Part shown: one piece after another, positions 25,344-54,333 of the stretch
Numbering within the stretch: position 1 is the stretch's first letter
Layout: every line of letters begins with the position of its first letter
DNA from: Flectonema sp. DT1601
Lineage: Eukaryota
NCBI GenBank assembly: GCA_964019425.1
Contig: OZ025797.1
Location: 620,001-684,000 of the forward strand
Direction: 5' to 3'
Length of the DNA stretch: 64,000 bases
Notes under the pieces: model-generated
Seen by the model: the letters and a program-made list of their open reading frames with translations, nothing else
Database searches by the model: none
What the model was told of the DNA's origin: nothing
Translations under genes and position numbers: made by a program

Positions 25344-25364
25344 TTTTTTTTTTATATATAATAT

Positions 25365-27154: not shown

Positions 27155-28459
27155 AAACAAGACAAATGAAGTAACAGACCAGAACAGATAGAGAATAAAA
27201 AGAAAAGATATAGGCAAGAGTTATTGTAGTAAAAGATAACAAATAAATAAATGCAAGTATCAACACATGACTAAATTACACCAGCAGCTAACAAACAACA
27301 TAAAATTGAAGATCAGTTGCCAGAGTATTTCAACCATGGTAGAATACTCGCCCCTCTGGCAGGGATTATCCCAGACTTGTCCTTTAATTTAGTTGGACAC
27401 CATGGCTTACAACCCTTCCAGAGGGAAGCACCATTATGACTTCTATTTTTTTTCTTCAAGAATATCATAAGGTGGGAACAAAGAAAAATGTTATGCCCAA
27501 TGCACTAACAGGTCATTCCCTCGCACTCAGATCTATATAAAAAATTTCTAAGTGAGAAATACTTAGCAACTTTTAGAACAAATATTTCAGTAAATAACCT
27601 GTAATGATTAAACCATTACAGGTTTGATGCCAAAACTGACAAGGACTGAGTTGAATTTACCAGGTGAGATTTGGATTGGCTAAGGCCCTCCCTGAAGAGC
27701 AAGAACAAAAAAACTACTCACACCTGAAGAAAACATACACAAAGAACACACTGTAAGCTGTGTGTGTATTTTGTGTTTGTCACAACAGGAGAGAAAAGAA
27801 AGAATGTCAAGGTTGGTCACCTTGCCTATCAACGCACAACATTGGTGGTCTCTACTAGACCCTGAGTGATCCCACTGGATCTCTCATCGTTCATAGTACC
27901 TATGTGAAGTTATAAAATCAAAGGTAAACTATGAACTACAAATGACTTAGCCTGTTATTATAATGCCACAGGCAGGCCCTGCATTCAGCAACTATCCAGC
28001 AGTGCTTGGATGTCCTGATCTTCTTCTAAAAAAAAGAAAGAAAAACAAAACTGTAGCTGGGATCACTCAGGATCAACAGACTACCAATGCTACCTGTTGT
28101 ACTTGCTCACTATGGGGGGTGATGCCAAACACCCAGAAGTACTAAACTGCTTTCCTTCTTGCTGCCCAGGAGTTTCTGACCAGAACTAATAGAAAATAAA
28201 AAGTAGATGGGAAACAATAAAAAGTAAAATGGATATAACTGAAGTTAAACAAGACAAATGAAGTAACAGACCAGAACAGAAAGAGGATTGTAATAGAAGA
28301 TTACAAATAAAAAAAATGCAAGTATCAACACATAATCAAGATACACCAGCAGCTAACAAACAACATAAAATTGAAGATCAGTTGCCAGAGTATTTCAACC
28401 ATGGTAGAATACTCGCCCCTCTGGCAGGGATTATCCCAGACTTGTCCTTTAATTTAGTT
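27155..28459 (+). repeat. Diverged, internally deleted copies of the 1,356-bp unit outside the array
   Basis: Colinear with the unit, with substitutions and deletions (junctions near 27491, 27533 and 27676). Confidence 0.95.
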
Positions 28460-28473
28460 TTTTATTTATATAT

Positions 28474-30544: not shown

Positions 30545-30579
30545 AGCTTTTTTTTTTTTTTTTTTTTTGGACACCATGG

Positions 30580-31019: not shown

Positions 31020-31050
31020 ATTGACTTACAAGTTCAAAGCCCGCGGTTCG

Positions 31051-31262: not shown

Positions 31263-31926
31263 CCATGGTGTCCAACTAAATTAAAGGACAAGTCTGGGAT
31301 AATCCCTGCCAGAGGGGCGAGTATTCTACCATGGTTGAAATACTCTGGCAACTGATCTTCAATTTTATGTTGTTTGTTAGCTGCTGGTGTATCTTGATTA
31401 TGTGTTGATACTTGCATTTTTTAATTTGTAATCTTCTATTACAATCCTCTTTCTGTTCTGGTCTGTTACTTCATTTGTCTTGTTTAACTTCAGTTATATG
31501 CATTTTACTTTTTATTGTTTCCCATCTACTTTTTATTTTCTATTAGTTCTGGTCAGAAACTCCTGGGCAGCAAGAAGGAAAGTAGTTAAGTACTTCTGGG
31601 TGTTTGGCATCACCCCCCATAGTGAGCAAGTACAACAGGTAGCATTGGTAGTCTGTTGATCCTGAGTGATCCCAGCTACAGTTTTGTTTTTCTTTCTTTT
31701 TTTTAGAAGAAGATCAGGACATCCAAGCACTGCTGGATAGTTGCTGAATGCAGGGCCTGCCTGTGGCATTATAATAACAGGCTAAGTCATTTGTAGTTCA
31801 TAGTTTACCTTTGATTTTATAACTTCACACAGGGTACTATGAACGATGAGAGATCCAGTGGGATCACTCAGGGTCTAGTAGAGACCACCAATGTTGTGCG
31901 TTGATAGGCAAGGTGACCAACCTTGA
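31263..31926 (-). repeat. Inverted 664-bp fragment of the 1,356-bp unit (variant type)
   Basis: Reverse complement of the unit from TCAAGGTTGG to GGACACCATGG; shares variants CATAATCAAG and AGAGGATTG with the 28.3-kb copy. Confidence 0.95.
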
Positions 31927-31927
31927 G

Positions 31928-32220
31928 GAATTTCGATAAAGTGGGAAGTAACGGACTGGGAGCTTTTGGCTCCTGCCCTATTCCCGATGTAAACTTTCTT
32001 TTTATTTTTTATTTTTTTTAACAGGCCCAAAGGGCGACAATGATGGTTGCTGACCAAGGAATAATATTCAAATGAATTTTCGTTTCAAAGAAACGAACAG
32101 AATTGAGAGAGAGGCAGAGAAAAAAAAAAAAAAAAAAGAAAGAAAGAATAGAAAAAGAAAAATATGAAGAGGAAATAATCAAACATGAAAAAAAAAAAAA
32201 AAAAAATATATAAATAAAAA
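31928..32220 (+). repeat. ~290-bp segment, inverted partner of 30261-30544; includes the empty site of the Sola2-like insertion
   Basis: Direct comparison; ends in poly-A then TATATAAATAAAAAA. Confidence 0.92.
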
Positions 32221-32362
32221 ACGTTGTATGAAAAAGGAAAAAAAGAAAAAAAAAAGACCAGAAAAGGAAAGAGAAAATGAAAAGGTATAATATTATTGTG
32301 GGGATATGAGGATAGCAGGGAGATGCTCTTTTTTTTTTTTTTTTTTATTATTTAAAAAAAGG

Positions 32363-32455
32363 AAACAATCAGTTTAGCGTCTCGATCAGGACGGAAAATA
32401 GAAATTAATCGACATAGTCGATCGATAGAAAAAAAAAAAATGATAACATTGTTTA

Positions 32456-32490
<35 letters not shown>

Positions 32491-32743
32491 CTTTTAATTA
32501 TTTTAAAGAAAAAACAATCAGTTTAGCGTCTTGACCAGGACGGAAAATAGAAAGTAATCGACATAGTCGATCGATAAAAAAAAAACAATGATAACATTGT
32601 TTATTCCTTTTTTTTTTTTTTTTTTTTTTAACCTTTTAATTATTTTTTAAAGAAAAAACAATCAGTTTAGCGTCTTGACCAGGACGGAAAATAGAAAGTG
32701 ATCGACATAGTCGATCGATAAAAAAACAATGATAACATTGTTT
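32363..32743 (+). repeat. Three tandem copies (period ~145 bp) of a ~90-bp core separated by poly-T
   Basis: AAACAATCAGTTTAGCGTCT(T/C)GA(C/T)CAGGACGGAAAATAGAAA..ATCGACATAGTCGATCGATA..ATGATAACATTGTTT, three times. Confidence 0.95.
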
Positions 32744-35700
32744 GAGTTGAATTTCCAGGTGAGATTTGGACTGTTAGCTTTTGGCTAAGGCCCTCCCTGA
32801 AGAGCAAGAACAAAAAAACTACTCACACCTGAAGAAAACATACACAAAGAACACACTGTAAGCTGTGTGTGTATTTTGTGTTTGTCACAACAGGAGAGAA
32901 AAGAAAGAATGTCAAGGTTGGTCACCTTGCCTATCAACGCACAACATTGGTGGTCTCTACTAGACCCTGAGTGATCCCACTGGATCTCTCATCGTTCATA
33001 GTACCCTGTGTGAAGTTATAAAATCAAAGGTAAACTATGAACTACAAATGACTTAGCCTGTTATTATAATGCCACAGGCAGGCCCTGCATTCAGCAACTA
33101 TCCAGCAGTGCTTGGATGTCCTGATCTTCTTCTAAAAAAAAGAAAGAAAAACAAAACTGTAGCTGGGATCACTCAGGATCAACAGACTACCAATGCTACC
33201 TGTTGTACTTGCTCACTATGGGGGGTGATGCCAAACACCCAGAAGTACTTAACTGCTTTCCTTCTTGCTGCCCAGGAGTTTCTGACCAGAACTAATAGAA
33301 AATAAAAAGTAGATGGGAAACAATAAAAAGTAAAATGGATATAACTGAAGTTAAACAAGACAAATGAAGTAACAGACCAGAACAGAAAGAGAATTGTAAT
33401 AGAAGATTACAAATAAAAAAATGCAAGTATCAACACATGATCAGGATACACCAGCAGCTAACAAACAACATAAAATTGAAGATCAGTTGCCAGAGTATTT
33501 CAACCATGGTAGAATACTCGCCCCTCTGGCAGGGATTATCCCAGACTTGTCCTTTAATTTAGTTGGACACCATGGCTTACAACCCTTCCAGAGGGAAGCA
33601 CCATTATGACTTCTATTTTTTTTCTTCAAGAAAATCATAAGGTGGGAACAAAGAAAAATGCTAAGAGGAACCCCCTATTAACACCTAAGACATCTAAACT
33701 GCAGCCCAGCCTATGCCCAATGCACTAACAGGTCATTCCCTCACACTCAGATCAAAAAATCAAAGTTCAGAGTGCATCTTAGCGTGAATGAGAGAATTTC
33801 CTCCCGCTCATTTTGAACAAAAGGGATAGGAGAAGGGATAGAAAACGAACATAAAAATAAAATTCTAAGTGAGAAACACTTAGCAGAAACACTTAGCAGC
33901 TTTTAAGGAGCTGAAAAGCAAAAAAAAAATCTAAGTGAGAAACACTTAGTAGAAACAATTTGTAGCTAATTAAGCTGAAAATAAAAAAATAAAAAATTTC
34001 TAAGTGAGAAATACTTAGCAACTTTTAGAACAAATATTTCAGTAAATAACCTGTAATGATTAAACCATTACAAGTTTGATGCCAAAACTGACAAGGACTG
34101 AGTTGAATTTCCAGGTGAGATTTGGACTGTTAGCTTTTGGCTAAGGCCCTCCCTGAAGAGCAAGAACAAAAAAACTACTCACACCTGAAGAAAACATACA
34201 CAAAGAACACACTGTAAGCTGTGTGTGTATTTTGTGTTTGTCACAACAGGAGAGAAAAGAAAGAATGTCAAGGTTGGTCACCTTGCCTATCAACGCACAA
34301 CATTGGTGGTCTCTACTAGACCCTGAGTGATCCCACTGGATCTCTCATCGTTCATAGTACCCTGTGTGAAGTTATAAAATCAAAGGTAAACTATGAACTA
34401 CAAATGACTTAGCCTGTTATTATAATGCCACAGGCAGGCCCTGCATTCAGCAACTATCCAGCAGTGCTTGGATGTCCTGATCTTCTTCTAAAAAAAAGAA
34501 AGAAAAACAAAACTGTAGCTGGGATCACTCAGGATCAACAGACTACCAATGCTACCTGTTGTACTTGCTCACTATGGGGGGTGATGCCAAACACCCAGAA
34601 GTACTTAACTGCTTTCCTTCTTGCTGCCCAGGAGTTTCTGACCAGAACTAATAGAAAATAAAAAGTAGATGGGAAACAATAAAAAGTAAAATGGATATAA
34701 CTGAAGTTAAACAAGACAAATGAAGTAACAGACCAGAACAGAAAGAGAATTGTAATAGAAGATTACAAATAAAAAAATGCAAGTATCAACACATGATCAG
34801 GATACACCAGCAGCTAACAAACAACATAAAATTGAAGATCAGTTGCCAGAGTATTTCAACCATGGTAGAATACTCGCCCCTCTGGCAGGGATTATCCCAG
34901 ACTTGTCCTTTAATTTAGTTGGACACCATGGCTTACAACCCTTCCAGAGGGAAGCACCATTATGACTTCTATTTTTTTTCTTCAAGAAAATCATAAGGTG
35001 GGAACAAAGAAAAATGCTAAGAGGAACCCCCTATTAACACCTAAGACATCTAAACTGCAGCCCAGCCTATGCCCAATGCACTAACAGGTCATTCCCTCAC
35101 ACTCAGATCAAAAAATCAAAGTTCAGAGTGCATCTTAGCGTGAATGAGAGAATTTCCTCCCGCTCATTTTGAACAAAAGGGATAGGAGAAGGGATAGAAA
35201 ACGAACATAAAAATAAAATTCTAAGTGAGAAACACTTAGCAGAAACACTTAGCAGCTTTTAAGGAGCTGAAAAGCAAAAAAAAAATCTAAGTGAGAAACA
35301 CTTAGTAGAAACAATTTGTAGCTAATTAAGCTGAAAATAAAAAAATAAAAAATTTCTAAGTGAGAAATACTTAGCAACTTTTAGAACAAATATTTCAGTA
35401 AATAACCTGTAATGATTAAACCATTACAAGTTTGATGCCAAAACTGACAAGGACTGAGTTGAATTTCCAGGTGAGATTTGGACTGTTAGCTTTTGGCTAA
35501 GGCCCTCCCTGAAGAGCAAGAACAAAAAAACTACTCACACCTGAAGAAAACATACACAAAGAACACACTGTAAGCTGTGTGTGTATTTTGTGTTTGTCAC
35601 AACAGGAGAGAAAAGAAAGAATGTCAAGGTTGGTCACCTTGCCTATCAACGCACAACATTGGTGGTCTCTACTAGACCCTGAGTGATCCCACTGGATCTC

Positions 35701-38700
35701 TCATCGTTCATAGTACCCTGTGTGAAGTTATAAAATCAAAGGTAAACTATGAACTACAAATGACTTAGCCTGTTATTATAATGCCACAGGCAGGCCCTGC
35801 ATTCAGCAACTATCCAGCAGTGCTTGGATGTCCTGATCTTCTTCTAAAAAAAAGAAAGAAAAACAAAACTGTAGCTGGGATCACTCAGGATCAACAGACT
35901 ACCAATGCTACCTGTTGTACTTGCTCACTATGGGGGGTGATGCCAAACACCCAGAAGTACTTAACTGCTTTCCTTCTTGCTGCCCAGGAGTTTCTGACCA
36001 GAACTAATAGAAAATAAAAAGTAGATGGGAAACAATAAAAAGTAAAATGGATATAACTGAAGTTAAACAAGACAAATGAAGTAACAGACCAGAACAGAAA
36101 GAGAATTGTAATAGAAGATTACAAATAAAAAAATGCAAGTATCAACACATGATCAGGATACACCAGCAGCTAACAAACAACATAAAATTGAAGATCAGTT
36201 GCCAGAGTATTTCAACCATGGTAGAATACTCGCCCCTCTGGCAGGGATTATCCCAGACTTGTCCTTTAATTTAGTTGGACACCATGGCTTACAACCCTTC
36301 CAGAGGGAAGCACCATTATGACTTCTATTTTTTTTCTTCAAGAAAATCATAAGGTGGGAACAAAGAAAAATGCTAAGAGGAACCCCCTATTAACACCTAA
36401 GACATCTAAACTGCAGCCCAGCCTATGCCCAATGCACTAACAGGTCATTCCCTCACACTCAGATCAAAAAATCAAAGTTCAGAGTGCATCTTAGCGTGAA
36501 TGAGAGAATTTCCTCCCGCTCATTTTGAACAAAAGGGATAGGAGAAGGGATAGAAAACGAACATAAAAATAAAATTCTAAGTGAGAAACACTTAGCAGAA
36601 ACACTTAGCAGCTTTTAAGGAGCTGAAAAGCAAAAAAAAAATCTAAGTGAGAAACACTTAGTAGAAACAATTTGTAGCTAATTAAGCTGAAAATAAAAAA
36701 ATAAAAAATTTCTAAGTGAGAAATACTTAGCAACTTTTAGAACAAATATTTCAGTAAATAACCTGTAATGATTAAACCATTACAAGTTTGATGCCAAAAC
36801 TGACAAGGACTGAGTTGAATTTCCAGGTGAGATTTGGACTGTTAGCTTTTGGCTAAGGCCCTCCCTGAAGAGCAAGAACAAAAAAACTACTCACACCTGA
36901 AGAAAACATACACAAAGAACACACTGTAAGCTGTGTGTGTATTTTGTGTTTGTCACAACAGGAGAGAAAAGAAAGAATGTCAAGGTTGGTCACCTTGCCT
37001 ATCAACGCACAACATTGGTGGTCTCTACTAGACCCTGAGTGATCCCACTGGATCTCTCATCGTTCATAGTACCCTGTGTGAAGTTATAAAATCAAAGGTA
37101 AACTATGAACTACAAATGACTTAGCCTGTTATTATAATGCCACAGGCAGGCCCTGCATTCAGCAACTATCCAGCAGTGCTTGGATGTCCTGATCTTCTTC
37201 TAAAAAAAAGAAAGAAAAACAAAACTGTAGCTGGGATCACTCAGGATCAACAGACTACCAATGCTACCTGTTGTACTTGCTCACTATGGGGGGTGATGCC
37301 AAACACCCAGAAGTACTTAACTGCTTTCCTTCTTGCTGCCCAGGAGTTTCTGACCAGAACTAATAGAAAATAAAAAGTAGATGGGAAACAATAAAAAGTA
37401 AAATGGATATAACTGAAGTTAAACAAGACAAATGAAGTAACAGACCAGAACAGAAAGAGAATTGTAATAGAAGATTACAAATAAAAAAATGCAAGTATCA
37501 ACACATGATCAGGATACACCAGCAGCTAACAAACAACATAAAATTGAAGATCAGTTGCCAGAGTATTTCAACCATGGTAGAATACTCGCCCCTCTGGCAG
37601 GGATTATCCCAGACTTGTCCTTTAATTTAGTTGGACACCATGGCTTACAACCCTTCCAGAGGGAAGCACCATTATGACTTCTATTTTTTTTCTTCAAGAA
37701 AATCATAAGGTGGGAACAAAGAAAAATGCTAAGAGGAACCCCCTATTAACACCTAAGACATCTAAACTGCAGCCCAGCCTATGCCCAATGCACTAACAGG
37801 TCATTCCCTCACACTCAGATCAAAAAATCAAAGTTCAGAGTGCATCTTAGCGTGAATGAGAGAATTTCCTCCCGCTCATTTTGAACAAAAGGGATAGGAG
37901 AAGGGATAGAAAACGAACATAAAAATAAAATTCTAAGTGAGAAACACTTAGCAGAAACACTTAGCAGCTTTTAAGGAGCTGAAAAGCAAAAAAAAAATCT
38001 AAGTGAGAAACACTTAGTAGAAACAATTTGTAGCTAATTAAGCTGAAAATAAAAAAATAAAAAATTTCTAAGTGAGAAATACTTAGCAACTTTTAGAACA
38101 AATATTTCAGTAAATAACCTGTAATGATTAAACCATTACAAGTTTGATGCCAAAACTGACAAGGACTGAGTTGAATTTCCAGGTGAGATTTGGACTGTTA
38201 GCTTTTGGCTAAGGCCCTCCCTGAAGAGCAAGAACAAAAAAACTACTCACACCTGAAGAAAACATACACAAAGAACACACTGTAAGCTGTGTGTGTATTT
38301 TGTGTTTGTCACAACAGGAGAGAAAAGAAAGAATGTCAAGGTTGGTCACCTTGCCTATCAACGCACAACATTGGTGGTCTCTACTAGACCCTGAGTGATC
38401 CCACTGGATCTCTCATCGTTCATAGTACCCTGTGTGAAGTTATAAAATCAAAGGTAAACTATGAACTACAAATGACTTAGCCTGTTATTATAATGCCACA
38501 GGCAGGCCCTGCATTCAGCAACTATCCAGCAGTGCTTGGATGTCCTGATCTTCTTCTAAAAAAAAGAAAGAAAAACAAAACTGTAGCTGGGATCACTCAG
38601 GATCAACAGACTACCAATGCTACCTGTTGTACTTGCTCACTATGGGGGGTGATGCCAAACACCCAGAAGTACTTAACTGCTTTCCTTCTTGCTGCCCAGG

Positions 38701-41700
38701 AGTTTCTGACCAGAACTAATAGAAAATAAAAAGTAGATGGGAAACAATAAAAAGTAAAATGGATATAACTGAAGTTAAACAAGACAAATGAAGTAACAGA
38801 CCAGAACAGAAAGAGAATTGTAATAGAAGATTACAAATAAAAAAATGCAAGTATCAACACATGATCAGGATACACCAGCAGCTAACAAACAACATAAAAT
38901 TGAAGATCAGTTGCCAGAGTATTTCAACCATGGTAGAATACTCGCCCCTCTGGCAGGGATTATCCCAGACTTGTCCTTTAATTTAGTTGGACACCATGGC
39001 TTACAACCCTTCCAGAGGGAAGCACCATTATGACTTCTATTTTTTTTCTTCAAGAAAATCATAAGGTGGGAACAAAGAAAAATGCTAAGAGGAACCCCCT
39101 ATTAACACCTAAGACATCTAAACTGCAGCCCAGCCTATGCCCAATGCACTAACAGGTCATTCCCTCACACTCAGATCAAAAAATCAAAGTTCAGAGTGCA
39201 TCTTAGCGTGAATGAGAGAATTTCCTCCCGCTCATTTTGAACAAAAGGGATAGGAGAAGGGATAGAAAACGAACATAAAAATAAAATTCTAAGTGAGAAA
39301 CACTTAGCAGAAACACTTAGCAGCTTTTAAGGAGCTGAAAAGCAAAAAAAAAATCTAAGTGAGAAACACTTAGTAGAAACAATTTGTAGCTAATTAAGCT
39401 GAAAATAAAAAAATAAAAAATTTCTAAGTGAGAAATACTTAGCAACTTTTAGAACAAATATTTCAGTAAATAACCTGTAATGATTAAACCATTACAAGTT
39501 TGATGCCAAAACTGACAAGGACTGAGTTGAATTTCCAGGTGAGATTTGGACTGTTAGCTTTTGGCTAAGGCCCTCCCTGAAGAGCAAGAACAAAAAAACT
39601 ACTCACACCTGAAGAAAACATACACAAAGAACACACTGTAAGCTGTGTGTGTATTTTGTGTTTGTCACAACAGGAGAGAAAAGAAAGAATGTCAAGGTTG
39701 GTCACCTTGCCTATCAACGCACAACATTGGTGGTCTCTACTAGACCCTGAGTGATCCCACTGGATCTCTCATCGTTCATAGTACCCTGTGTGAAGTTATA
39801 AAATCAAAGGTAAACTATGAACTACAAATGACTTAGCCTGTTATTATAATGCCACAGGCAGGCCCTGCATTCAGCAACTATCCAGCAGTGCTTGGATGTC
39901 CTGATCTTCTTCTAAAAAAAAGAAAGAAAAACAAAACTGTAGCTGGGATCACTCAGGATCAACAGACTACCAATGCTACCTGTTGTACTTGCTCACTATG
40001 GGGGGTGATGCCAAACACCCAGAAGTACTTAACTGCTTTCCTTCTTGCTGCCCAGGAGTTTCTGACCAGAACTAATAGAAAATAAAAAGTAGATGGGAAA
40101 CAATAAAAAGTAAAATGGATATAACTGAAGTTAAACAAGACAAATGAAGTAACAGACCAGAACAGAAAGAGAATTGTAATAGAAGATTACAAATAAAAAA
40201 ATGCAAGTATCAACACATGATCAGGATACACCAGCAGCTAACAAACAACATAAAATTGAAGATCAGTTGCCAGAGTATTTCAACCATGGTAGAATACTCG
40301 CCCCTCTGGCAGGGATTATCCCAGACTTGTCCTTTAATTTAGTTGGACACCATGGCTTACAACCCTTCCAGAGGGAAGCACCATTATGACTTCTATTTTT
40401 TTTCTTCAAGAAAATCATAAGGTGGGAACAAAGAAAAATGCTAAGAGGAACCCCCTATTAACACCTAAGACATCTAAACTGCAGCCCAGCCTATGCCCAA
40501 TGCACTAACAGGTCATTCCCTCACACTCAGATCAAAAAATCAAAGTTCAGAGTGCATCTTAGCGTGAATGAGAGAATTTCCTCCCGCTCATTTTGAACAA
40601 AAGGGATAGGAGAAGGGATAGAAAACGAACATAAAAATAAAATTCTAAGTGAGAAACACTTAGCAGAAACACTTAGCAGCTTTTAAGGAGCTGAAAAGCA
40701 AAAAAAAAATCTAAGTGAGAAACACTTAGTAGAAACAATTTGTAGCTAATTAAGCTGAAAATAAAAAAATAAAAAATTTCTAAGTGAGAAATACTTAGCA
40801 ACTTTTAGAACAAATATTTCAGTAAATAACCTGTAATGATTAAACCATTACAAGTTTGATGCCAAAACTGACAAGGACTGAGTTGAATTTCCAGGTGAGA
40901 TTTGGACTGTTAGCTTTTGGCTAAGGCCCTCCCTGAAGAGCAAGAACAAAAAAACTACTCACACCTGAAGAAAACATACACAAAGAACACACTGTAAGCT
41001 GTGTGTGTATTTTGTGTTTGTCACAACAGGAGAGAAAAGAAAGAATGTCAAGGTTGGTCACCTTGCCTATCAACGCACAACATTGGTGGTCTCTACTAGA
41101 CCCTGAGTGATCCCACTGGATCTCTCATCGTTCATAGTACCCTGTGTGAAGTTATAAAATCAAAGGTAAACTATGAACTACAAATGACTTAGCCTGTTAT
41201 TATAATGCCACAGGCAGGCCCTGCATTCAGCAACTATCCAGCAGTGCTTGGATGTCCTGATCTTCTTCTAAAAAAAAGAAAGAAAAACAAAACTGTAGCT
41301 GGGATCACTCAGGATCAACAGACTACCAATGCTACCTGTTGTACTTGCTCACTATGGGGGGTGATGCCAAACACCCAGAAGTACTTAACTGCTTTCCTTC
41401 TTGCTGCCCAGGAGTTTCTGACCAGAACTAATAGAAAATAAAAAGTAGATGGGAAACAATAAAAAGTAAAATGGATATAACTGAAGTTAAACAAGACAAA
41501 TGAAGTAACAGACCAGAACAGAAAGAGAATTGTAATAGAAGATTACAAATAAAAAAATGCAAGTATCAACACATGATCAGGATACACCAGCAGCTAACAA
41601 ACAACATAAAATTGAAGATCAGTTGCCAGAGTATTTCAACCATGGTAGAATACTCGCCCCTCTGGCAGGGATTATCCCAGACTTGTCCTTTAATTTAGTT

Positions 41701-42371
41701 GGACACCATGGCTTACAACCCTTCCAGAGGGAAGCACCATTATGACTTCTATTTTTTTTCTTCAAGAAAATCATAAGGTGGGAACAAAGAAAAATGCTAA
41801 GAGGAACCCCCTATTAACACCTAAGACATCTAAACTGCAGCCCAGCCTATGCCCAATGCACTAACAGGTCATTCCCTCACACTCAGATCAAAAAATCAAA
41901 GTTCAGAGTGCATCTTAGCGTGAATGAGAGAATTTCCTCCCGCTCATTTTGAACAAAAGGGATAGGAGAAGGGATAGAAAACGAACATAAAAATAAAATT
42001 CTAAGTGAGAAACACTTAGCAGAATCACTTAGCAGCTTTTAAGGAGCTGAAAAGCAAAAAAAAAATCTAAGTGAGAAACACTTAGTAGAAACAATTTGTA
42101 GCTAATTAAGCTGAAAATAAAAAAATAAAAAATTTCTAAGTGAGAAATACTTAGCAACTTTTAGAACAAATATTTCAGTAAATAACCTGTAATGATTAAA
42201 CCATTACAAGTTTGATGCCAAAACTGACAAGGACTGAGTTGAATTTCCAGGTGAGATTTGGACTGTTAGCTTTTGGCTAAGGCCCTCCCTGAAGAGCAAG
42301 AACAAAAAAACTACTCACACCTGAAGAAAACATACACAAAGAACACACTGTAAGCTGTGTGTGTATTTTGT

Positions 42372-42752
42372 CATCAGGACATCCAAGCACTGCTGGATAG
42401 TTGCTGAATGCAGGGCCTGCCTGTGGCATTATAATAACAGGCTAAGTCATTTGTAGTTCATAGTTTACCTTTGATTTTATAACTTCACATAGGTACTATG
42501 AACGATGAGAGATCCAGTGGGATCACTCAGGGTCTAGTAGAGACCACCAATGTTGTGCGTTGATAGGCAAGGTGACCAACCTTGACATTCTTTCTTTTCT
42601 CTCCTGTTGTGACAAACACAAAATACACACACAGCTTACAGTGTGTTCTTTGTGTATGTTTTCTTCAGGTGTGAGTAGTTTTTTTGTTCTTGCTCTTCAG
42701 GGAGGGCCTTAGCCAAAAGCTAACAGTCCAAATCTCACCTGGTAAATTCAAC
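42372..42752 (-). repeat. Inverted 381-bp fragment of a variant unit inserted within the array
   Basis: Reverse complement runs GTTGAATTTACCAGG...GGATGTCCTGAT; explains the 1,736-bp spacing between 41205 and 42941. Confidence 0.95.
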
Positions 42753-45700
42753 TTTGTCACAACAGGAGAGAAAAGAAAGAATGTCAAGGTTGGTCACCTT
42801 GCCTATCAACGCACAACATTGGTGGTCTCTACTAGACCCTGAGTGATCCCACTGGATCTCTCATCGTTCATAGTACCCTGTGTGAAGTTATAAAATCAAA
42901 GGTAAACTATGAACTACAAATGACTTAGCCTGTTATTATAATGCCACAGGCAGGCCCTGCATTCAGCAACTATCCAGCAGTGCTTGGATGTCCTGATCTT
43001 CTTCTAAAAAAAAGAAAGAAAAACAAAACTGTAGCTGGGATCACTCAGGATCAACAGACTACCAATGCTACCTGTTGTACTTGCTCACTATGGGGGGTGA
43101 TGCCAAACACCCAGAAGTACTTAACTGCTTTCCTTCTTGCTGCCCAGGAGTTTCTGACCAGAACTAATAGAAAATAAAAAGTAGATGGGAAACAATAAAA
43201 AGCAAAATGGATATAACTGAAGTTAAACAAGACAAATGAAGTAACAGACCAGAACAGAAAGAGAATTGTAATAGAAGATTACAAATAAAAAAATGCAAGT
43301 ATCAACACATGATCAGGATACACCAGCAGCTAACAAACAACATAAAATTGAAGATCAGTTGCCAGAGTATTTCAACCATGGTAGAATACTCGCCCCTCTG
43401 GCAGGGATTATCCCAGACTTGTCCTTTAATTTAGTTGGACACCATGGCTTACAACCCTTCCAGAGGGAAGCACCATTATGACTTCTATTTTTTTTCTTCA
43501 AGAAAATCATAAGGTGGGAACAAAGAAAAATGCTAAGAGGAACCCCCTATTAACACCTAAGACATCTAAACTGCAGCCCAGCCTATGCCCAATGCACTAA
43601 CAGGTCATTCCCTCACACTCAGATCAAAAAATCAAAGTTCAGAGTGCATCTTAGCGTGAATGAGAGAATTTCCTCCCGCTCATTTTGAACAAAAGGGATA
43701 GGAGAAGGGATAGAAAACGAACATAAAAATAAAATTCTAAGTGAGAAACACTTAGCAGAAACACTTAGCAGCTTTTAAGGAGCTGAAAAGCAAAAAAAAA
43801 ATCTAAGTGAGAAACACTTAGTAGAAACAATTTGTAGCTAATTAAGCTGAAAATAAAAAAATAAAAAATTTCTAAGTGAGAAATACTTAGCAACTTTTAG
43901 AACAAATATTTCAGTAAATAACCTGTAATGATTAAACCATTACAAGTTTGATGCCAAAACTGACAAGGACTGAGTTGAATTTCCAGGTGAGATTTGGACT
44001 GTTAGCTTTTGGCTAAGGCCCTCCCTGAAGAGCAAGAACAAAAAAACTACTCACACCTGAAGAAAACATACACAAAGAACACACTGTAAGCTGTGTGTGT
44101 ATTTTGTGTTTGTCACAACAGGAGAGAAAAGAAAGAATGTCAAGGTTGGTCACCTTGCCTATCAACGCACAACATTGGTGGTCTCTACTAGACCCTGAGT
44201 GATCCCACTGGATCTCTCATCGTTCATAGTACCCTGTGTGAAGTTATAAAATCAAAGGTAAACTATGAACTACAAATGACTTAGCCTGTTATTATAATGC
44301 CACAGGCAGGCCCTGCATTCAGCAACTATCCAGCAGTGCTTGGATGTCCTGATCTTCTTCTAAAAAAAAGAAAGAAAAACAAAACTGTAGCTGGGATCAC
44401 TCAGGATCAACAGACTACCAATGCTACCTGTTGTACTTGCTCACTATGGGGGGTGATGCCAAACACCCAGAAGTACTTAACTGCTTTCCTTCTTGCTGCC
44501 CAGGAGTTTCTGACCAGAACTAATAGAAAATAAAAAGTAGATGGGAAACAATAAAAAGTAAAATGGATATAACTGAAGTTAAACAAGACAAATGAAGTAA
44601 CAGACCAGAACAGAAAGAGAATTGTAATAGAAGATTACAAATAAAAAAATGCAAGTATCAACACATGATCAGGATACACCAGCAGCTAACAAACAACATA
44701 AAATTGAAGATCAGTTGCCAGAGTATTTCAACCATGGTAGAATACTCGCCCCTCTGGCAGGGATTATCCCAGACTTGTCCTTTAATTTAGTTGGACACCA
44801 TGGCTTACAACCCTTCCAGAGGGAAGCACCATTATGACTTCTATTTTTTTTCTTCAAGAAAATCATAAGGTGGGAACAAAGAAAAATGCTAAGAGGAACC
44901 CCCTATTAACACCTAAGACATCTAAACTGCAGCCCAGCCTATGCCCAATGCACTAACAGGTCATTCCCTCACACTCAGATCAAAAAATCAAAGTTCAGAG
45001 TGCATCTTAGCGTGAATGAGAGAATTTCCTCCCGCTCATTTTGAACAAAAGGGATAGGAGAAGGGATAGAAAACGAACATAAAAATAAAATTCTAAGTGA
45101 GAAACACTTAGCAGAAACACTTAGCAGCTTTTAAGGAGCTGAAAAGCAAAAAAAAAATCTAAGTGAGAAACACTTAGTAGAAACAATTTGTAGCTAATTA
45201 AGCTGAAAATAAAAAAATAAAAAATTTCTAAGTGAGAAATACTTAGCAACTTTTAGAACAAATATTTCAGTAAATAACCTGTAATGATTAAACCATTACA
45301 AGTTTGATGCCAAAACTGACAAGGACTGAGTTGAATTTCCAGGTGAGATTTGGACTGTTAGCTTTTGGCTAAGGCCCTCCCTGAAGAGCAAGAACAAAAA
45401 AACTACTCACACCTGAAGAAAACATACACAAAGAACACACTGTAAGCTGTGTGTGTATTTTGTGTTTGTCACAACAGGAGAGAAAAGAAAGAATGTCAAG
45501 GTTGGTCACCTTGCCTATCAACGCACAACATTGGTGGTCTCTACTAGACCCTGAGTGATCCCACTGGATCTCTCATCGTTCATAGTACCCTGTGTGAAGT
45601 TATAAAATCAAAGGTAAACTATGAACTACAAATGACTTAGCCTGTTATTATAATGCCACAGGCAGGCCCTGCATTCAGCAACTATCCAGCAGTGCTTGGA

Positions 45701-48700
45701 TGTCCTGATCTTCTTCTAAAAAAAAGAAAGAAAAACAAAACTGTAGCTGGGATCACTCAGGATCAACAGACTACCAATGCTACCTGTTGTACTTGCTCAC
45801 TATGGGGGGTGATGCCAAACACCCAGAAGTACTTAACTGCTTTCCTTCTTGCTGCCCAGGAGTTTCTGACCAGAACTAATAGAAAATAAAAAGTAGATGG
45901 GAAACAATAAAAAGTAAAATGGATATAACTGAAGTTAAACAAGACAAATGAAGTAACAGACCAGAACAGAAAGAGAATTGTAATAGAAGATTACAAATAA
46001 AAAAATGCAAGTATCAACACATGATCAGGATACACCAGCAGCTAACAAACAACATAAAATTGAAGATCAGTTGCCAGAGTATTTCAACCATGGTAGAATA
46101 CTCGCCCCTCTGGCAGGGATTATCCCAGACTTGTCCTTTAATTTAGTTGGACACCATGGCTTACAACCCTTCCAGAGGGAAGCACCATTATGACTTCTAT
46201 TTTTTTTCTTCAAGAAAATCATAAGGTGGGAACAAAGAAAAATGCTAAGAGGAACCCCCTATTAACACCTAAGACATCTAAACTGCAGCCCAGCCTATGC
46301 CCAATGCACTAACAGGTCATTCCCTCACACTCAGATCAAAAAATCAAAGTTCAGAGTGCATCTTAGCGTGAATGAGAGAATTTCCTCCCGCTCATTTTGA
46401 ACAAAAGGGATAGGAGAAGGGATAGAAAACGAACATAAAAATAAAATTCTAAGTGAGAAACACTTAGCAGAAACACTTAGCAGCTTTTAAGGAGCTGAAA
46501 AGCAAAAAAAAAATCTAAGTGAGAAACACTTAGTAGAAACAATTTGTAGCTAATTAAGCTGAAAATAAAAAAATAAAAAATTTCTAAGTGAGAAATACTT
46601 AGCAACTTTTAGAACAAATATTTCAGTAAATAACCTGTAATGATTAAACCATTACAAGTTTGATGCCAAAACTGACAAGGACTGAGTTGAATTTCCAGGT
46701 GAGATTTGGACTGTTAGCTTTTGGCTAAGGCCCTCCCTGAAGAGCAAGAACAAAAAAACTACTCACACCTGAAGAAAACATACACAAAGAACACACTGTA
46801 AGCTGTGTGTGTATTTTGTGTTTGTCACAACAGGAGAGAAAAGAAAGAATGTCAAGGTTGGTCACCTTGCCTATCAACGCACAACATTGGTGGTCTCTAC
46901 TAGACCCTGAGTGATCCCACTGGATCTCTCATCGTTCATAGTACCCTGTGTGAAGTTATAAAATCAAAGGTAAACTATGAACTACAAATGACTTAGCCTG
47001 TTATTATAATGCCACAGGCAGGCCCTGCATTCAGCAACTATCCAGCAGTGCTTGGATGTCCTGATCTTCTTCTAAAAAAAAGAAAGAAAAACAAAACTGT
47101 AGCTGGGATCACTCAGGATCAACAGACTACCAATGCTACCTGTTGTACTTGCTCACTATGGGGGGTGATGCCAAACACCCAGAAGTACTTAACTGCTTTC
47201 CTTCTTGCTGCCCAGGAGTTTCTGACCAGAACTAATAGAAAATAAAAAGTAGATGGGAAACAATAAAAAGTAAAATGGATATAACTGAAGTTAAACAAGA
47301 CAAATGAAGTAACAGACCAGAACAGAAAGAGAATTGTAATAGAAGATTACAAATAAAAAAATGCAAGTATCAACACATGATCAGGATACACCAGCAGCTA
47401 ACAAACAACATAAAATTGAAGATCAGTTGCCAGAGTATTTCAACCATGGTAGAATACTCGCCCCTCTGGCAGGGATTATCCCAGACTTGTCCTTTAATTT
47501 AGTTGGACACCATGGCTTACAACCCTTCCAGAGGGAAGCACCATTATGACTTCTATTTTTTTTCTTCAAGAAAATCATAAGGTGGGAACAAAGAAAAATG
47601 CTAAGAGGAACCCCCTATTAACACCTAAGACATCTAAACTGCAGCCCAGCCTATGCCCAATGCACTAACAGGTCATTCCCTCACACTCAGATCAAAAAAT
47701 CAAAGTTCAGAGTGCATCTTAGCGTGAATGAGAGAATTTCCTCCCGCTCATTTTGAACAAAAGGGATAGGAGAAGGGATAGAAAACGAACATAAAAATAA
47801 AATTCTAAGTGAGAAACACTTAGCAGAAACACTTAGCAGCTTTTAAGGAGCTGAAAAGCAAAAAAAAAATCTAAGTGAGAAACACTTAGTAGAAACAATT
47901 TGTAGCTAATTAAGCTGAAAATAAAAAAATAAAAAATTTCTAAGTGAGAAATACTTAGCAACTTTTAGAACAAATATTTCAGTAAATAACCTGTAATGAT
48001 TAAACCATTACAAGTTTGATGCCAAAACTGACAAGGACTGAGTTGAATTTCCAGGTGAGATTTGGACTGTTAGCTTTTGGCTAAGGCCCTCCCTGAAGAG
48101 CAAGAACAAAAAAACTACTCACACCTGAAGAAAACATACACAAAGAACACACTGTAAGCTGTGTGTGTATTTTGTGTTTGTCACAACAGGAGAGAAAAGA
48201 AAGAATGTCAAGGTTGGTCACCTTGCCTATCAACGCACAACATTGGTGGTCTCTACTAGACCCTGAGTGATCCCACTGGATCTCTCATCGTTCATAGTAC
48301 CCTGTGTGAAGTTATAAAATCAAAGGTAAACTATGAACTACAAATGACTTAGCCTGTTATTATAATGCCACAGGCAGGCCCTGCATTCAGCAACTATCCA
48401 GCAGTGCTTGGATGTCCTGATCTTCTTCTAAAAAAAAGAAAGAAAAACAAAACTGTAGCTGGGATCACTCAGGATCAACAGACTACCAATGCTACCTGTT
48501 GTACTTGCTCACTATGGGGGGTGATGCCAAACACCCAGAAGTACTTAACTGCTTTCCTTCTTGCTGCCCAGGAGTTTCTGACCAGAACTAATAGAAAATA
48601 AAAAGTAGATGGGAAACAATAAAAAGTAAAATGGATATAACTGAAGTTAAACAAGACAAATGAAGTAACAGACCAGAACAGAAAGAGAATTGTAATAGAA

Positions 48701-51700
48701 GATTACAAATAAAAAAATGCAAGTATCAACACATGATCAGGATACACCAGCAGCTAACAAACAACATAAAATTGAAGATCAGTTGCCAGAGTATTTCAAC
48801 CATGGTAGAATACTCGCCCCTCTGGCAGGGATTATCCCAGACTTGTCCTTTAATTTAGTTGGACACCATGGCTTACAACCCTTCCAGAGGGAAGCACCAT
48901 TATGACTTCTATTTTTTTTCTTCAAGAAAATCATAAGGTGGGAACAAAGAAAAATGCTAAGAGGAACCCCCTATTAACACCTAAGACATCTAAACTGCAG
49001 CCCAGCCTATGCCCAATGCACTAACAGGTCATTCCCTCACACTCAGATCAAAAAATCAAAGTTCAGAGTGCATCTTAGCGTGAATGAGAGAATTTCCTCC
49101 CGCTCATTTTGAACAAAAGGGATAGGAGAAGGGATAGAAAACGAACATAAAAATAAAATTCTAAGTGAGAAACACTTAGCAGAAACACTTAGCAGCTTTT
49201 AAGGAGCTGAAAAGCAAAAAAAAAATCTAAGTGAGAAACACTTAGTAGAAACAATTTGTAGCTAATTAAGCTGAAAATAAAAAAATAAAAAATTTCTAAG
49301 TGAGAAATACTTAGCAACTTTTAGAACAAATATTTCAGTAAATAACCTGTAATGATTAAACCATTACAAGTTTGATGCCAAAACTGACAAGGACTGAGTT
49401 GAATTTCCAGGTGAGATTTGGACTGTTAGCTTTTGGCTAAGGCCCTCCCTGAAGAGCAAGAACAAAAAAACTACTCACACCTGAAGAAAACATACACAAA
49501 GAACACACTGTAAGCTGTGTGTGTATTTTGTGTTTGTCACAACAGGAGAGAAAAGAAAGAATGTCAAGGTTGGTCACCTTGCCTATCAACGCACAACATT
49601 GGTGGTCTCTACTAGACCCTGAGTGATCCCACTGGATCTCTCATCGTTCATAGTACCCTGTGTGAAGTTATAAAATCAAAGGTAAACTATGAACTACAAA
49701 TGACTTAGCCTGTTATTATAATGCCACAGGCAGGCCCTGCATTCAGCAACTATCCAGCAGTGCTTGGATGTCCTGATCTTCTTCTAAAAAAAAGAAAGAA
49801 AAACAAAACTGTAGCTGGGATCACTCAGGATCAACAGACTACCAATGCTACCTGTTGTACTTGCTCACTATGGGGGGTGATGCCAAACACCCAGAAGTAC
49901 TTAACTGCTTTCCTTCTTGCTGCCCAGGAGTTTCTGACCAGAACTAATAGAAAATAAAAAGTAGATGGGAAACAATAAAAAGTAAAATGGATATAACTGA
50001 AGTTAAACAAGACAAATGAAGTAACAGACCAGAACAGAAAGAGAATTGTAATAGAAGATTACAAATAAAAAAATGCAAGTATCAACACATGATCAGGATA
50101 CACCAGCAGCTAACAAACAACATAAAATTGAAGATCAGTTGCCAGAGTATTTCAACCATGGTAGAATACTCGCCCCTCTGGCAGGGATTATCCCAGACTT
50201 GTCCTTTAATTTAGTTGGACACCATGGCTTACAACCCTTCCAGAGGGAAGCACCATTATGACTTCTATTTTTTTTCTTCAAGAAAATCATAAGGTGGGAA
50301 CAAAGAAAAATGCTAAGAGGAACCCCCTATTAACACCTAAGACATCTAAACTGCAGCCCAGCCTATGCCCAATGCACTAACAGGTCATTCCCTCACACTC
50401 AGATCAAAAAATCAAAGTTCAGAGTGCATCTTAGCGTGAATGAGAGAATTTCCTCCCGCTCATTTTGAACAAAAGGGATAGGAGAAGGGATAGAAAACGA
50501 ACATAAAAATAAAATTCTAAGTGAGAAACACTTAGCAGAAACACTTAGCAGCTTTTAAGGAGCTGAAAAGCAAAAAAAAAATCTAAGTGAGAAACACTTA
50601 GTAGAAACAATTTGTAGCTAATTAAGCTGAAAATAAAAAAATAAAAAATTTCTAAGTGAGAAATACTTAGCAACTTTTAGAACAAATATTTCAGTAAATA
50701 ACCTGTAATGATTAAACCATTACAAGTTTGATGCCAAAACTGACAAGGACTGAGTTGAATTTCCAGGTGAGATTTGGACTGTTAGCTTTTGGCTAAGGCC
50801 CTCCCTGAAGAGCAAGAACAAAAAAACTACTCACACCTGAAGAAAACATACACAAAGAACACACTGTAAGCTGTGTGTGTATTTTGTGTTTGTCACAACA
50901 GGAGAGAAAAGAAAGAATGTCAAGGTTGGTCACCTTGCCTATCAACGCACAACATTGGTGGTCTCTACTAGACCCTGAGTGATCCCACTGGATCTCTCAT
51001 CGTTCATAGTACCCTGTGTGAAGTTATAAAATCAAAGGTAAACTATGAACTACAAATGACTTAGCCTGTTATTATAATGCCACAGGCAGGCCCTGCATTC
51101 AGCAACTATCCAGCAGTGCTTGGATGTCCTGATCTTCTTCTAAAAAAAAGAAAGAAAAACAAAACTGTAGCTGGGATCACTCAGGATCAACAGACTACCA
51201 ATGCTACCTGTTGTACTTGCTCACTATGGGGGGTGATGCCAAACACCCAGAAGTACTTAACTGCTTTCCTTCTTGCTGCCCAGGAGTTTCTGACCAGAAC
51301 TAATAGAAAATAAAAAGTAGATGGGAAACAATAAAAAGTAAAATGGATATAACTGAAGTTAAACAAGACAAATGAAGTAACAGACCAGAACAGAAAGAGA
51401 ATTGTAATAGAAGATTACAAATAAAAAAATGCAAGTATCAACACATGATCAGGATACACCAGCAGCTAACAAACAACATAAAATTGAAGATCAGTTGCCA
51501 GAGTATTTCAACCATGGTAGAATACTCGCCCCTCTGGCAGGGATTATCCCAGACTTGTCCTTTAATTTAGTTGGACACCATGGCTTACAACCCTTCCAGA
51601 GGGAAGCACCATTATGACTTCTATTTTTTTTCTTCAAGAAAATCATAAGGTGGGAACAAAGAAAAATGCTAAGAGGAACCCCCTATTAACACCTAAGACA

Positions 51701-54031
51701 TCTAAACTGCAGCCCAGCCTATGCCCAATGCACTAACAGGTCATTCCCTCACACTCAGATCAAAAAATCAAAGTTCAGAGTGCATCTTAGCGTGAATGAG
51801 AGAATTTCCTCCCGCTCATTTTGAACAAAAGGGATAGGAGAAGGGATAGAAAACGAACATAAAAATAAAATTCTAAGTGAGAAACACTTAGCAGAAACAC
51901 TTAGCAGCTTTTAAGGAGCTGAAAAGCAAAAAAAAAATCTAAGTGAGAAACACTTAGTAGAAACAATTTGTAGCTAATTAAGCTGAAAATAAAAAAATAA
52001 AAAATTTCTAAGTGAGAAATACTTAGCAACTTTTAGAACAAATATTTCAGTAAATAACCTGTAATGATTAAACCATTACAAGTTTGATGCCAAAACTGAC
52101 AAGGACTGAGTTGAATTTCCAGGTGAGATTTGGACTGTTAGCTTTTGGCTAAGGCCCTCCCTGAAGAGCAAGAACAAAAAAACTACTCACACCTGAAGAA
52201 AACATACACAAAGAACACACTGTAAGCTGTGTGTGTATTTTGTGTTTGTCACAACAGGAGAGAAAAGAAAGAATGTCAAGGTTGGTCACCTTGCCTATCA
52301 ACGCACAACATTGGTGGTCTCTACTAGACCCTGAGTGATCCCACTGGATCTCTCATCGTTCATAGTACCCTGTGTGAAGTTATAAAATCAAAGGTAAACT
52401 ATGAACTACAAATGACTTAGCCTGTTATTATAATGCCACAGGCAGGCCCTGCATTCAGCAACTATCCAGCAGTGCTTGGATGTCCTGATCTTCTTCTAAA
52501 AAAAAGAAAGAAAAACAAAACTGTAGCTGGGATCACTCAGGATCAACAGACTACCAATGCTACCTGTTGTACTTGCTCACTATGGGGGGTGATGCCAAAC
52601 ACCCAGAAGTACTTAACTGCTTTCCTTCTTGCTGCCCAGGAGTTTCTGACCAGAACTAATAGAAAATAAAAAGTAGATGGGAAACAATAAAAAGTAAAAT
52701 GGATATAACTGAAGTTAAACAAGACAAATGAAGTAACAGACCAGAACAGAAAGAGAATTGTAATAGAAGATTACAAATAAAAAAATGCAAGTATCAACAC
52801 ATGATCAGGATACACCAGCAGCTAACAAACAACATAAAATTGAAGATCAGTTGCCAGAGTATTTCAACCATGGTAGAATACTCGCCCCTCTGGCAGGGAT
52901 TATCCCAGACTTGTCCTTTAATTTAGTTGGACACCATGGCTTACAACCCTTCCAGAGGGAAGCACCATTATGACTTCTATTTTTTTTCTTCAAGAAAATC
53001 ATAAGGTGGGAACAAAGAAAAATGCTAAGAGGAACCCCCTATTAACACCTAAGACATCTAAACTGCAGCCCAGCCTATGCCCAATGCACTAACAGGTCAT
53101 TCCCTCACACTCAGATCAAAAAATCAAAGTTCAGAGTGCATCTTAGCGTGAATGAGAGAATTTCCTCCCGCTCATTTTGAACAAAAGGGATAGGAGAAGG
53201 GATAGAAAACGAACATAAAAATAAAATTCTAAGTGAGAAACACTTAGCAGAAACACTTAGCAGCTTTTAAGGAGCTGAAAAGCAAAAAAAAAATCTAAGT
53301 GAGAAACACTTAGTAGAAACAATTTGTAGCTAATTAAGCTGAAAATAAAAAAATAAAAAATTTCTAAGTGAGAAATACTTAGCAACTTTTAGAACAAATA
53401 TTTCAGTAAATAACCTGTAATGATTAAACCATTACAAGTTTGATGCCAAAACTGACAAGGACTGAGTTGAATTTCCAGGTGAGATTTGGACTGTTAGCTT
53501 TTGGCTAAGGCCCTCCCTGAAGAGCAAGAACAAAAAAACTACTCACACCTGAAGAAAACATACACAAAGAACACACTGTAAGCTGTGTGTGTATTTTGTG
53601 TTTGTCACAACAGGAGAGAAAAGAAAGAATGTCAAGGTTGGTCACCTTGCCTATCAACGCACAACATTGGTGGTCTCTACTAGACCCTGAGTGATCCCAC
53701 TGGATCTCTCATCGTTCATAGTACCCTGTGTGAAGTTATAAAATCAAAGGTAAACTATGAACTACAAATGACTTAGCCTGTTATTATAATGCCACAGGCA
53801 GGCCCTGCATTCAGCAACTATCCAGCAGTGCTTGGATGTCCTGATCTTCTTCTAAAAAAAAGAAAGAAAAACAAAACTGTAGCTGGGATCACTCAGGATC
53901 AACAGACTACCAATGCTACCTGTTGTACTTGCTCACTATGGGGGGTGATGCCAAACACCCAGAAGTACTTAACTGCTTTCCTTCTTGCTGCCCAGGAGTT
54001 TCTGACCAGAACTAATAGAAAATAAAAAGTA

Positions 54032-54333
54032 CTGCAACTGGAAATATTACTGCGCTGAATAATTACTGCGGGGAAATATTACTGCGCGGAAAAATTAGTG
54101 CGGTTTTTTTGAGAAAAGATTAGTGCGGTTTTTTCCACTTGGTGGTAGAAAAAAATTTGGTTGCTTTTTTGCTGTGTAAGGCACCAGCAGAAAAATGCAT
54201 CTGGAGAAAAAATCACTTCTGAGCAGAAATATTAGTGCGGTGGAAATATTACTGCGTGGAAAAATTAGTGCGGTTTTTTGCAGATTTGGAAATTAGTGCG
54301 GTTTTTTCCGCGCAGTAATATTTCCAGTTGCAG
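54032..54333 (+). mobile_element. 302-bp MITE with 24-bp perfect TIRs and a TA target-site duplication (Tc1/mariner-type)
   Basis: The empty site AAAAAG-TA-GATGGG occurs in the other units. Here: TA|CTGCAACTGGAAATATTACTGCGC...GCGCAGTAATATTTCCAGTTGCAG|TA, with internal ATTAGTGCGG repeats. Confidence 0.95.

Follow-up and report, generated by a model that had tools for sequence, protein, structure and literature searches.

How long satellite arrays arise and spread is still argued: unequal exchange, extrachromosomal circles and transposable elements have each been put forward. The locus considered here, in a stretch of 64,000 nucleotides from Flectonema sp. DT1601 (hereafter the window, by which we mean that whole stretch), raises the question in a particular form. 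Within an array of 1,356-bp repeats, one unit is interrupted by a partial copy of the same repeat in the opposite orientation. Is the repeat an ordinary satellite in which a break happened to be patched, or is it a mobile unit that has re-entered its own array?

The tandem array (32744..64000, forward strand, period 1,356 bp) comprises at least 23 units and extends past the end of the window. Its units, whose ends read GAGTTG...AAGGACT, are identical in sequence: comparison of 20 intact units, the unit that hosts the inverted copy, a unit bearing a MITE and the final partial unit yielded two single-base exceptions in approximately 31 kb. One of these, at window position 42025 (unit position 1146, in the unit starting at 40880), lies 347 nt to the left of the insert; the other, at 43203, lies 450 nt to its right and is a private base of the host unit (unit position 588), where contigs assembled from two public sequencing runs, X1 and X2, carry T. 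The two differences are possible marks of error-prone repair, of shielding from homogenisation, or of polishing errors. Two units are over-long: one (1,736 bp, an excess of 380) holds the inverted insert, and the other holds the 300-bp MITE (54032-54331), which has 24-bp terminal inverted repeats (CTGCAACTGG...) and a TA target duplication. Internal 16-17-bp GAAATATTAGTGCGG repeats are also found in the MITE, and a related repeat block is present at 25096-25161.

The unit itself gives no sign of coding for protein: the longest ATG frame is 78 aa, a length reached or exceeded in 21% of shuffles, and no Pfam match was found within the unit. Searches of Rfam families, ribozymes included, returned no match at E up to 1 over 40700-44100 and none at gathering score over 1-36000, and a tRNA search likewise gave no match. 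No hammerhead or other self-cleaving motif was found in the unit, which contains two CUGANGA boxes without helix II. Reading by eye revealed no terminal inverted repeats between the two ends of the unit; a 7-bp hairpin stands 26 nt before its end. The plus strand has an excess of A, and AATAAA occurs at unit positions 558 and 579. Nested long-range complementary segments (48-70/460-482, 202-213/441-452 and 220-236/421-437) are present in unit 1-629 (window 43972-44600), for which the fold z is -3.0 on the plus strand and -4.4 on the minus strand; this complementarity could reflect a structured RNA or the remnant of an older inverted duplication. Every unit further contains three 66-bp repeats (unit 1104-1304; for example, window 45075-45275), situated 90-250 nt upstream of unit position 1 and each including the palindrome CTAAGTG(AGAAA)CACTTAG, which may be protein-binding or promoter elements. 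A 15-bp duplication (unit 610-624 against the unit end) was considered and set aside as being at background level, 55 of 235 control windows scoring equally well.

The insert lies at 42372..42752 on the reverse strand. It begins with a filler C (42372), accounted for by neither host nor insert, and continues as the reverse complement of unit positions 382 to 3 (42373-42752). To its left the host unit (42236..42371, forward strand) matches unit 1-136 at 100% identity and finishes in an imperfect AC/GT-rich hairpin, within its 3' arm (19-nt arms, 84% complementary); the fold z of the hairpin, at -1.5, is not significant. To its right the host (42753..43971, forward strand) continues with unit 138-1356. 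The first base on that side (T, 42753) is ambiguous between insert (unit 2) and host (unit 138), host G137 is missing, and the array resumes in phase, passing from 136 to 138; the net change to the target is one nucleotide lost and one filler nucleotide gained. Both junctions are non-homologous and blunt – sharing no base on the left, where the filler stands, and one on the right – and neither shows a poly(A) tail or A run. The insert makes inverted repeats with arms of 121-128 nt. TTTGTCA is present at both junctions, as the initial annotation had claimed. As a target duplication it is ambiguous, since host TTTGT, the filler C and the first base of the insert together make up the left copy: the choice is between a coincidence with odds of 1 in 16 and a 7-bp duplication combined with a 6-bp slippage deletion (one TTTGTG repeat lost). 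The coordinates of the insert in that annotation, and all five of its statements about motifs, were correct on re-checking. The insert is a real feature of the sequence: a truncated, opposite-orientation copy of the 1,356-bp repeat inside one unit.

Where did this copy come from? It is 99.2% identical to the array unit, from which it differs over unit 2-382 at exactly three places: an A added after position 11, a C missing at 261, and G265A. Each of these variants is shared with an older copy of the unit at 27.6 kb, and the sole difference between the insert and that copy is the copy's own 10-bp deletion. Exact occurrence counts agree with the earlier observation that the insert carries the variants of the diverged copy yet keeps CTGTTAGCTT: GAATTTACCAGG and GTACCTATGTG are each confined to the 27.6-kb copy and, in reversed form, to the insert; the array forms of these two sites number 23 apiece; and CTGTTAGCTT is retained in the insert and absent from the 27.6-kb copy. 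Because the insert carries the 27.6-kb haplotype, its donor was not the surrounding array, and the proposal that the unit is copied in trans holds in that the insert derives from a variant copy. The stronger claim, that the donor must be a third copy, is unneeded: an ancestor of the 27.6-kb copy, or another unit of the older array to which that copy belonged, would do.

Words of the unit are present in 16 rows from 12 studies (runs X1-X16), under 12 different organism labels and at low depth; no RNA run is listed among them. This spread points to an organism that is widespread, or else to one often present as a companion or contaminant. Public metagenome contigs and genome contigs gave no match to two exact patterns taken from the unit. 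The main unit allele differs by sample, X1 having CCTATGTG without the extra A and X2 the array form; two of the insert's three variant bases make up the main allele in X1.

These runs bear on whether the insert is an artefact, built from a chimeric long read and absent from the genome. Its junctions are found in no independent data set: contigs of the public runs contain neither, those of X1 and X2 show the uninterrupted unit only (a skip of 381 letters, with G between), and among the runs listed the best word share, 0.81, is below the 0.846 expected from ordinary unit words alone. The perfect identity of the units suggests heavy consensus polishing, and the two odd bases of the array stand beside the insert. 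An artefact, however, needs two separate non-homologous junctions with the array resuming exactly in phase. Moreover, the three variant bases are natural alleles of the 27.6-kb copy, two of them being also in the main X1 contig, so the inserted sequence did not come from array reads. We therefore regard an assembly or read artefact as very improbable. A fold-back or hairpin-adapter artefact was considered separately and rejected: the flip is asymmetric, 136 being joined to 382.

A second property of the insert concerns the point at which it ends. The array start reads ...CATTGTT(T) up to the boundary and GAGTTG beyond it; the end of the insert reads (A)GTTGAATTT, at unit position 2/3, no more than 3 nt from the array start. 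The shared end reported initially is thus real, with an offset of at most 3 nt. Two further contexts come from the public runs. In X1, a 2,966-nt contig of unrelated sequence, a flank that is absent from the window, ends ...GCTTCG(CT) and is followed by GAGTTG; in X2, a 291-nt contig runs from unit 627 via 231 other letters into unit position 1. The evidence for these two junctions consists of de Bruijn contigs with just 30-letter overlaps onto the unit. All four junction contexts (array start, insert end, X1 contig and X2 contig) fall at unit -1..3. With the array start taken as origin, the binomial chance of such a pile-up is 0.03 for the window alone (at least one of 6 other ends within 3 nt), 7e-4 once X1 is added (at least 2 of 8 ends) and 1.6e-5 with both X1 and X2 (at least 3 of 10 ends). 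The end of the repeat is fixed to within approximately 4 nt in four different junction contexts, and the recurrence of these junctions, together with the low chance of the pile-up, indicates that the unit has a defined terminus, at GAGTTGAATT, as had been proposed.

The opposite ends vary: unit 382 in the insert, 624 in X1, 627 in X2 and 832 in an older pair of copies within the window. Contig depth over unit 1-610 is about twice that over 580-1356 in both runs (X1, X2), at 17 vs 9.8 in one and 6.0 vs 2.6-2.8 in the other, as copies truncated at the far end would give. X1 showed no junction of the complementary type (...GGACT joined to foreign sequence).

A pile-up of copy ends at the terminus, which the initial annotation had anticipated, is thus found in the four junction contexts and not at the 27.6-kb copy, which runs straight through. 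This older partial tandem copy (27155..28459, forward strand) consists of unit 610..1356 (with deletions, and 95.6% identity in part) followed by unit 1..821 (99.1%). It crosses the unit junction without discontinuity at the terminus, and is therefore a fragment of a tandem, not a copy terminating there. It resumes with unit 822-832 at 30569..30579 (forward strand), after a 2.1-kb block at unit 821/822. Head to head with it, across a gap of 683 nt, stands an inverted copy of unit 832..169 (31263..31926, reverse strand) that is of array type at positions 261 and 265; both copies stop at unit 832. The immediate left flank of the array is a 144-bp repeat in 2.9 copies (32329..32743, forward strand), the last of which is cut at ...CATTGTT(T), where the unit starts. 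We also considered whether the array lies inside one copy of a W-Z repeat (flanks 10 nt apart in an intact copy, with a far end at 821). This was rejected, since the unit resumes with 822-832 past the 2.1-kb block; Z thus marks where an insertion into the unit ends and does not flank the array.

Several other repeats occupy this flank. The 2.1-kb block within the older copy (28460-30568) has 171-bp inverted repeats at its start and near its end (28463-28633 / 30101-30271, 96%), then a 281-bp segment and a T21 run; a 430-bp sequence from its end recurs at 25348-25777. A pair of 285-bp inverted repeat arms (30264-30544 / 31928-32212, 96%) meets the unit at two places, one arm at unit position 822 via T21 and the other at unit position 169 directly, so the end of that segment is defined as well. 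Between the head-to-head copies, the 683-nt spacer contains 7.9 copies of a 20-bp repeat, ATTTTGGGGTATTTTGGGCC (31055-31213), reminiscent of T4G4-type telomere repeats; adjoining it is a 160-aa frame (30543-31025, reverse strand) with a faint hint of a MuDR DNA-binding domain (E 0.014).

The flank between 25 and 32 kb is, then, a mosaic of rearranged, partly inverted pieces, and this is one of several observations in keeping with an explanation that involves DNA alone. The repeat would be an ordinary satellite, and a double-strand break at the GT-rich hairpin of one unit would have been repaired either by end-joining, with a loose 381-bp piece of DNA from an older, variant array captured in the process, or by switching template onto that piece in two steps. 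The blunt junctions, sharing 0-1 nt, with one filler and one lost nucleotide, fit such a repair; so do the position of the host break in a hairpin arm, the two base differences at 347 and 450 nt – as error-prone repair synthesis would leave – and the presence of a variant donor just 14 kb away. What repair leaves unexplained is why the fragment should end no more than 3 nt from the array start, and why foreign sequence is joined at the same point in two other runs. Nor does the 27.6-kb copy show a discontinuity at that point, or X1 the join of ...GGACT to foreign sequence, and a template switch is further opposed by the left junction, which has no microhomology. DNA-only break repair is accordingly an explanation that we think unlikely, if by no means negligible.

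A fixed end could also belong to a DNA element that moves without RNA. In this case a rolling-circle (Helitron-like) process or site-specific recombination would act from a fixed nick at unit position 1, the other end being variable, and arrays would form via repeated copying. Such an element would account for the one fixed and one variable end, for the want of a clear target duplication and for long head-to-tail arrays that begin exactly at the fixed end; the 7-bp hairpin close to the unit end is also in its favor. Helitrons are marked by a 5' TC, a 3' CTRR with a hairpin nearby, and target sites between an A and a T. The ends of the unit, however, are not TC...CTRR, and the three readable junctions, with TTT, CG(CT) and AAA directly before the boundary, are not A|T or T|T. 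The unit lacks terminal inverted repeats, and a domain scan of ORFs detected neither a Rep/helicase nor a recombinase (the scan took 54 of the 79 ORFs of at least 75 aa left of the array; the other 25 were judged mostly antisense within long genes or low-complexity). We attach little probability to either form of DNA element.

If the unit is mobile and does not encode its own machinery, a candidate source is found at the left edge of the window. Here an ORF of 375 aa (P0001; 2..1126, reverse strand), open past the window edge, is the N-terminal part, bearing a GIY-YIG motif, of a Penelope-like protein. Its Pfam GIY-YIG score is 21.2 bits, slightly below the cut-off of 22.6, and leads from a protein atlas name GIY-YIG only, all below 0.9. 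A reverse TRANSCRIPTASE (RT) domain was found in none of the 54 scanned ORFs of the window. A word-based search for long relatives of the ORF returned none; an exhaustive phmmer search returned 30 relatives, of which the 15 with at least 450 aa were taken for a domain scan. Pfam GIY-YIG is present in 7 of these 15, mostly near the N-terminus; one has a weak RVT_1 match downstream of GIY-YIG (22.8 bits, below the cut-off of 29.6), and six carry R[FY]IDD approximately 700 residues downstream. The aligned region of the homologues contains the blocks PK..K..R.IA, DF..MY, GIPMG..A.P..AN, RYIDD and FLG, which we take to be RT motifs 1-7. For the predicted model of one homologue (mean pLDDT 55.9; RT core approximately 75-95), telomerase RTs account for every one of the 17 best structural matches (E 1.3e-7 to 5.6e-5); a DRT2 defence RT comes next, followed by RTs of group II introns and retrons. 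When two long homologues and the profile of the family were compared by sequence with solved structures, no RT was retrieved, the only match being the I-TevI nuclease domain (E 0.003), and it took the fold search to reveal the RT. The ORF aligns to the N-terminal third of the family alignment A2 (hhalign probability 99.5%, E 6.7e-23).

Together the profile alignment and the predicted fold support the interpretation of ORF 2-1126 as the N-terminal part of a family that combines GIY-YIG with a telomerase-like RT, the domain order of some Penelope-like elements. GIY-YIG followed by RT is the order of the Naiad/Chlamys clade in the part of PMC8557442 available to us. The suggestion that the window contains a PLE-like element is therefore supported by the match to this family, the RT part of this copy being off the window. 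Upstream, no partial copy of the Penelope-like element was detected. Comparison of the unit with window 1-4100, around the Penelope-like ORF, gave a best score of 28.4 bits, with shuffles reaching 33.1; the 3' end of the element is off the window.

Other long frames in the window use the standard code and have a eukaryotic look, among them polycystin-like channels and a CDC14-like phosphatase. A tandem segmental duplication (3468-9121 / 9768-16066; 97% over 4.3 kb) includes two polycystin-like channel genes, each with an OpuAC-like substrate-binding domain, an unusual combination.

We consider the 1,356-bp repeat likely to be a mobile element and predict that it is copied through RNA; the source of the RT would most plausibly be of the Penelope-like kind whose gene starts in the window. 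As a whole, the reading that the unit is a non-coding passenger of a Penelope-like element, copied via RNA by an RT acting in trans, and that the insert marks its re-entry into its own array, is one to which we give roughly even credence. The corresponding proposal in the initial annotation – an RNA intermediate mobilised by a PLE-like RT – thus stands in part: a Penelope-like gene is present in the window, but poly(A), a ribozyme and a sequence link between unit and element are not seen there.

Under this passenger reading, a transcript of the unit, probably of the window's minus strand, would be reverse-transcribed from a fixed start at unit position 1. The template would be a variant master copy, and synthesis would halt after 381 nt. 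The cDNA would then be inserted where another unit had broken at its GT-rich hairpin, one nucleotide being lost and one filler nucleotide added. The resulting inverted repeats, with their arms of 121-128 nt, would thereafter shield the two neighboring units from homogenisation, and we propose that this shielding is the reason why the only two base differences of the array stand 347 and 450 nt from the insert. If a Penelope-like RT is the engine, the shared end is more likely to be the 3' end of a minus-strand transcript (the RT start site) than a 5' end. Reverse transcription that starts at defined internal RNA sites coinciding with the ends of genomic copies is described in the accessible part of PMC11167929.

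An alternative arrangement uses the other strand: a plus-strand RNA would start at position 1, and break-primed cDNA would run off the 5' end of that RNA. This variant fits the A-rich plus strand, the palindromic 66-bp repeats upstream, and the far ends at 624-627 after the AATAAA at 558 and 579. With the minus strand as sense, by comparison, the RNA would be rich in U, an uncommon composition for a retroelement, and this counts against that reading. In both strand variants the RNA step is what we infer. Two further considerations temper the passenger reading. Blunt junctions that share 0-1 nt fit the end-joining of any DNA fragment equally well; and the array, with at least 23 identical units, far exceeds the usual multicopy insertion, so that unequal exchange must be added to the account.

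A bolder version may be entertained, in which a ribozyme-free non-coding RNA passenger of a telomerase-like (Penelope-like) RT founds and seeds satellite arrays and re-invades its own array. Each array would start at the enzyme's fixed RNA start site and grow to more than 31 kb of identical units. We put this forward tentatively and think it rather doubtful; if true, satellite DNA would be seen in the act of being born and spread by retrotransposition.

What is established at this locus is that the terminus of a 1.36-kb unit recurs at different loci and in different samples, and that a Penelope-like gene stands 30 kb away. If the RNA route holds, the locus offers a compact, testable example of how a retroelement passenger becomes a satellite, and the habit of tandem and inverted insertion seen in N-terminal-nuclease Penelope-like elements would gain a new host as well as a new passenger. 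If the RNA route fails, what is left is nonetheless a breakpoint within a repeat that is well defined and recurs. The interest is mainly for specialists in mobile elements and satellites.

How does the unit compare with systems already known? Of the marks of a cut-and-paste transposon or MITE, the unit has neither terminal inverted repeats nor a target duplication of fixed length, unlike the MITE at 54032-54331. Satellite units with internal inversions arise by template switching during replication, and the present case resembles these in having an inverted partial unit inside an array and a break at a hairpin-prone GT-rich tract. It differs from them in that the donor is a variant copy and not the neighboring units, in that there is no microhomology, and in that one end of the inverted segment is a recurrent terminus.

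Among products of LINE activity, the closest parallels are endonuclease-independent LINE-1 insertions at DNA breaks, which, in the part of PMC1920257 available, share with the insert the use of a retro-copy as a patch, the lack of signs of an endonuclease and a small loss of target. The 5'-inverted LINE-1 copies, as covered by the accessible text of PMC2912911, show that an inverted arrangement is possible. Compared with the LINE-1 cases so described, there is here no LINE, no poly(A) tail and no A-rich 3' end, and the inverted segment stands alone rather than being joined to a direct 3' segment of the same copy. The marks of a LINE-dependent retrocopy or SINE are likewise not evident at the insert: neither junction carries a poly(A) or A-rich tail, and TTTGTCA is an ambiguous duplication.

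Non-LTR retrozymes, tandem hammerhead-bearing repeats that have been proposed as Penelope-like derivatives (in the accessible parts of bioRxiv 10.64898/2026.07.22.740005 and PMC7761336), are another comparison. Like them as there described, the unit is a tandem non-coding repeat thought to spread through RNA, and it is internally base-paired (unit 1-629). Unlike them, the unit is 1,356 bp long, has no self-cleaving motif and possesses a defined end that a ribozyme cut does not explain.

There is also a likeness to the non-autonomous passengers of N-terminal-nuclease Penelope-like elements (Chlamys/Naiad, for example MRC1 of Chlamydomonas). According to the part of PMC8557442 available, Penelope-like elements show frequent 5' truncation, partial tandems, an adjacent inverted 5'-truncated copy and target duplications that are difficult to discern; non-autonomous Chlamys elements often insert in multiple copies arranged head to tail, and the N-terminal-nuclease clade is without canonical hammerheads. 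Measured against the passengers in that description, the present case departs in three respects: the array, with at least 23 identical units over more than 31 kb, goes far beyond the usual insertion; the inverted copy is nested inside a unit rather than adjacent to a 5' end; and no 30-40-bp 'tail' was seen. A further passenger trait, a 3' end shared with the autonomous element, has no counterpart above shuffles in window 1-4100, the 3' end of the element being off the window. In other respects the same partial account matches the unit. The unit is non-coding; it has one fixed end and is truncated from the other, the sense strand being undecided; it occurs in head-to-tail multicopies, as a partial tandem and as inverted truncated copies; it is without a canonical hammerhead, and its target duplication is hard to see. 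The insert, moreover, adjoins a short (TG)n/(CA)n run, and a gene of the matching protein architecture is present in the same window. The locus is probably that of a non-autonomous Penelope-like passenger forming a satellite.
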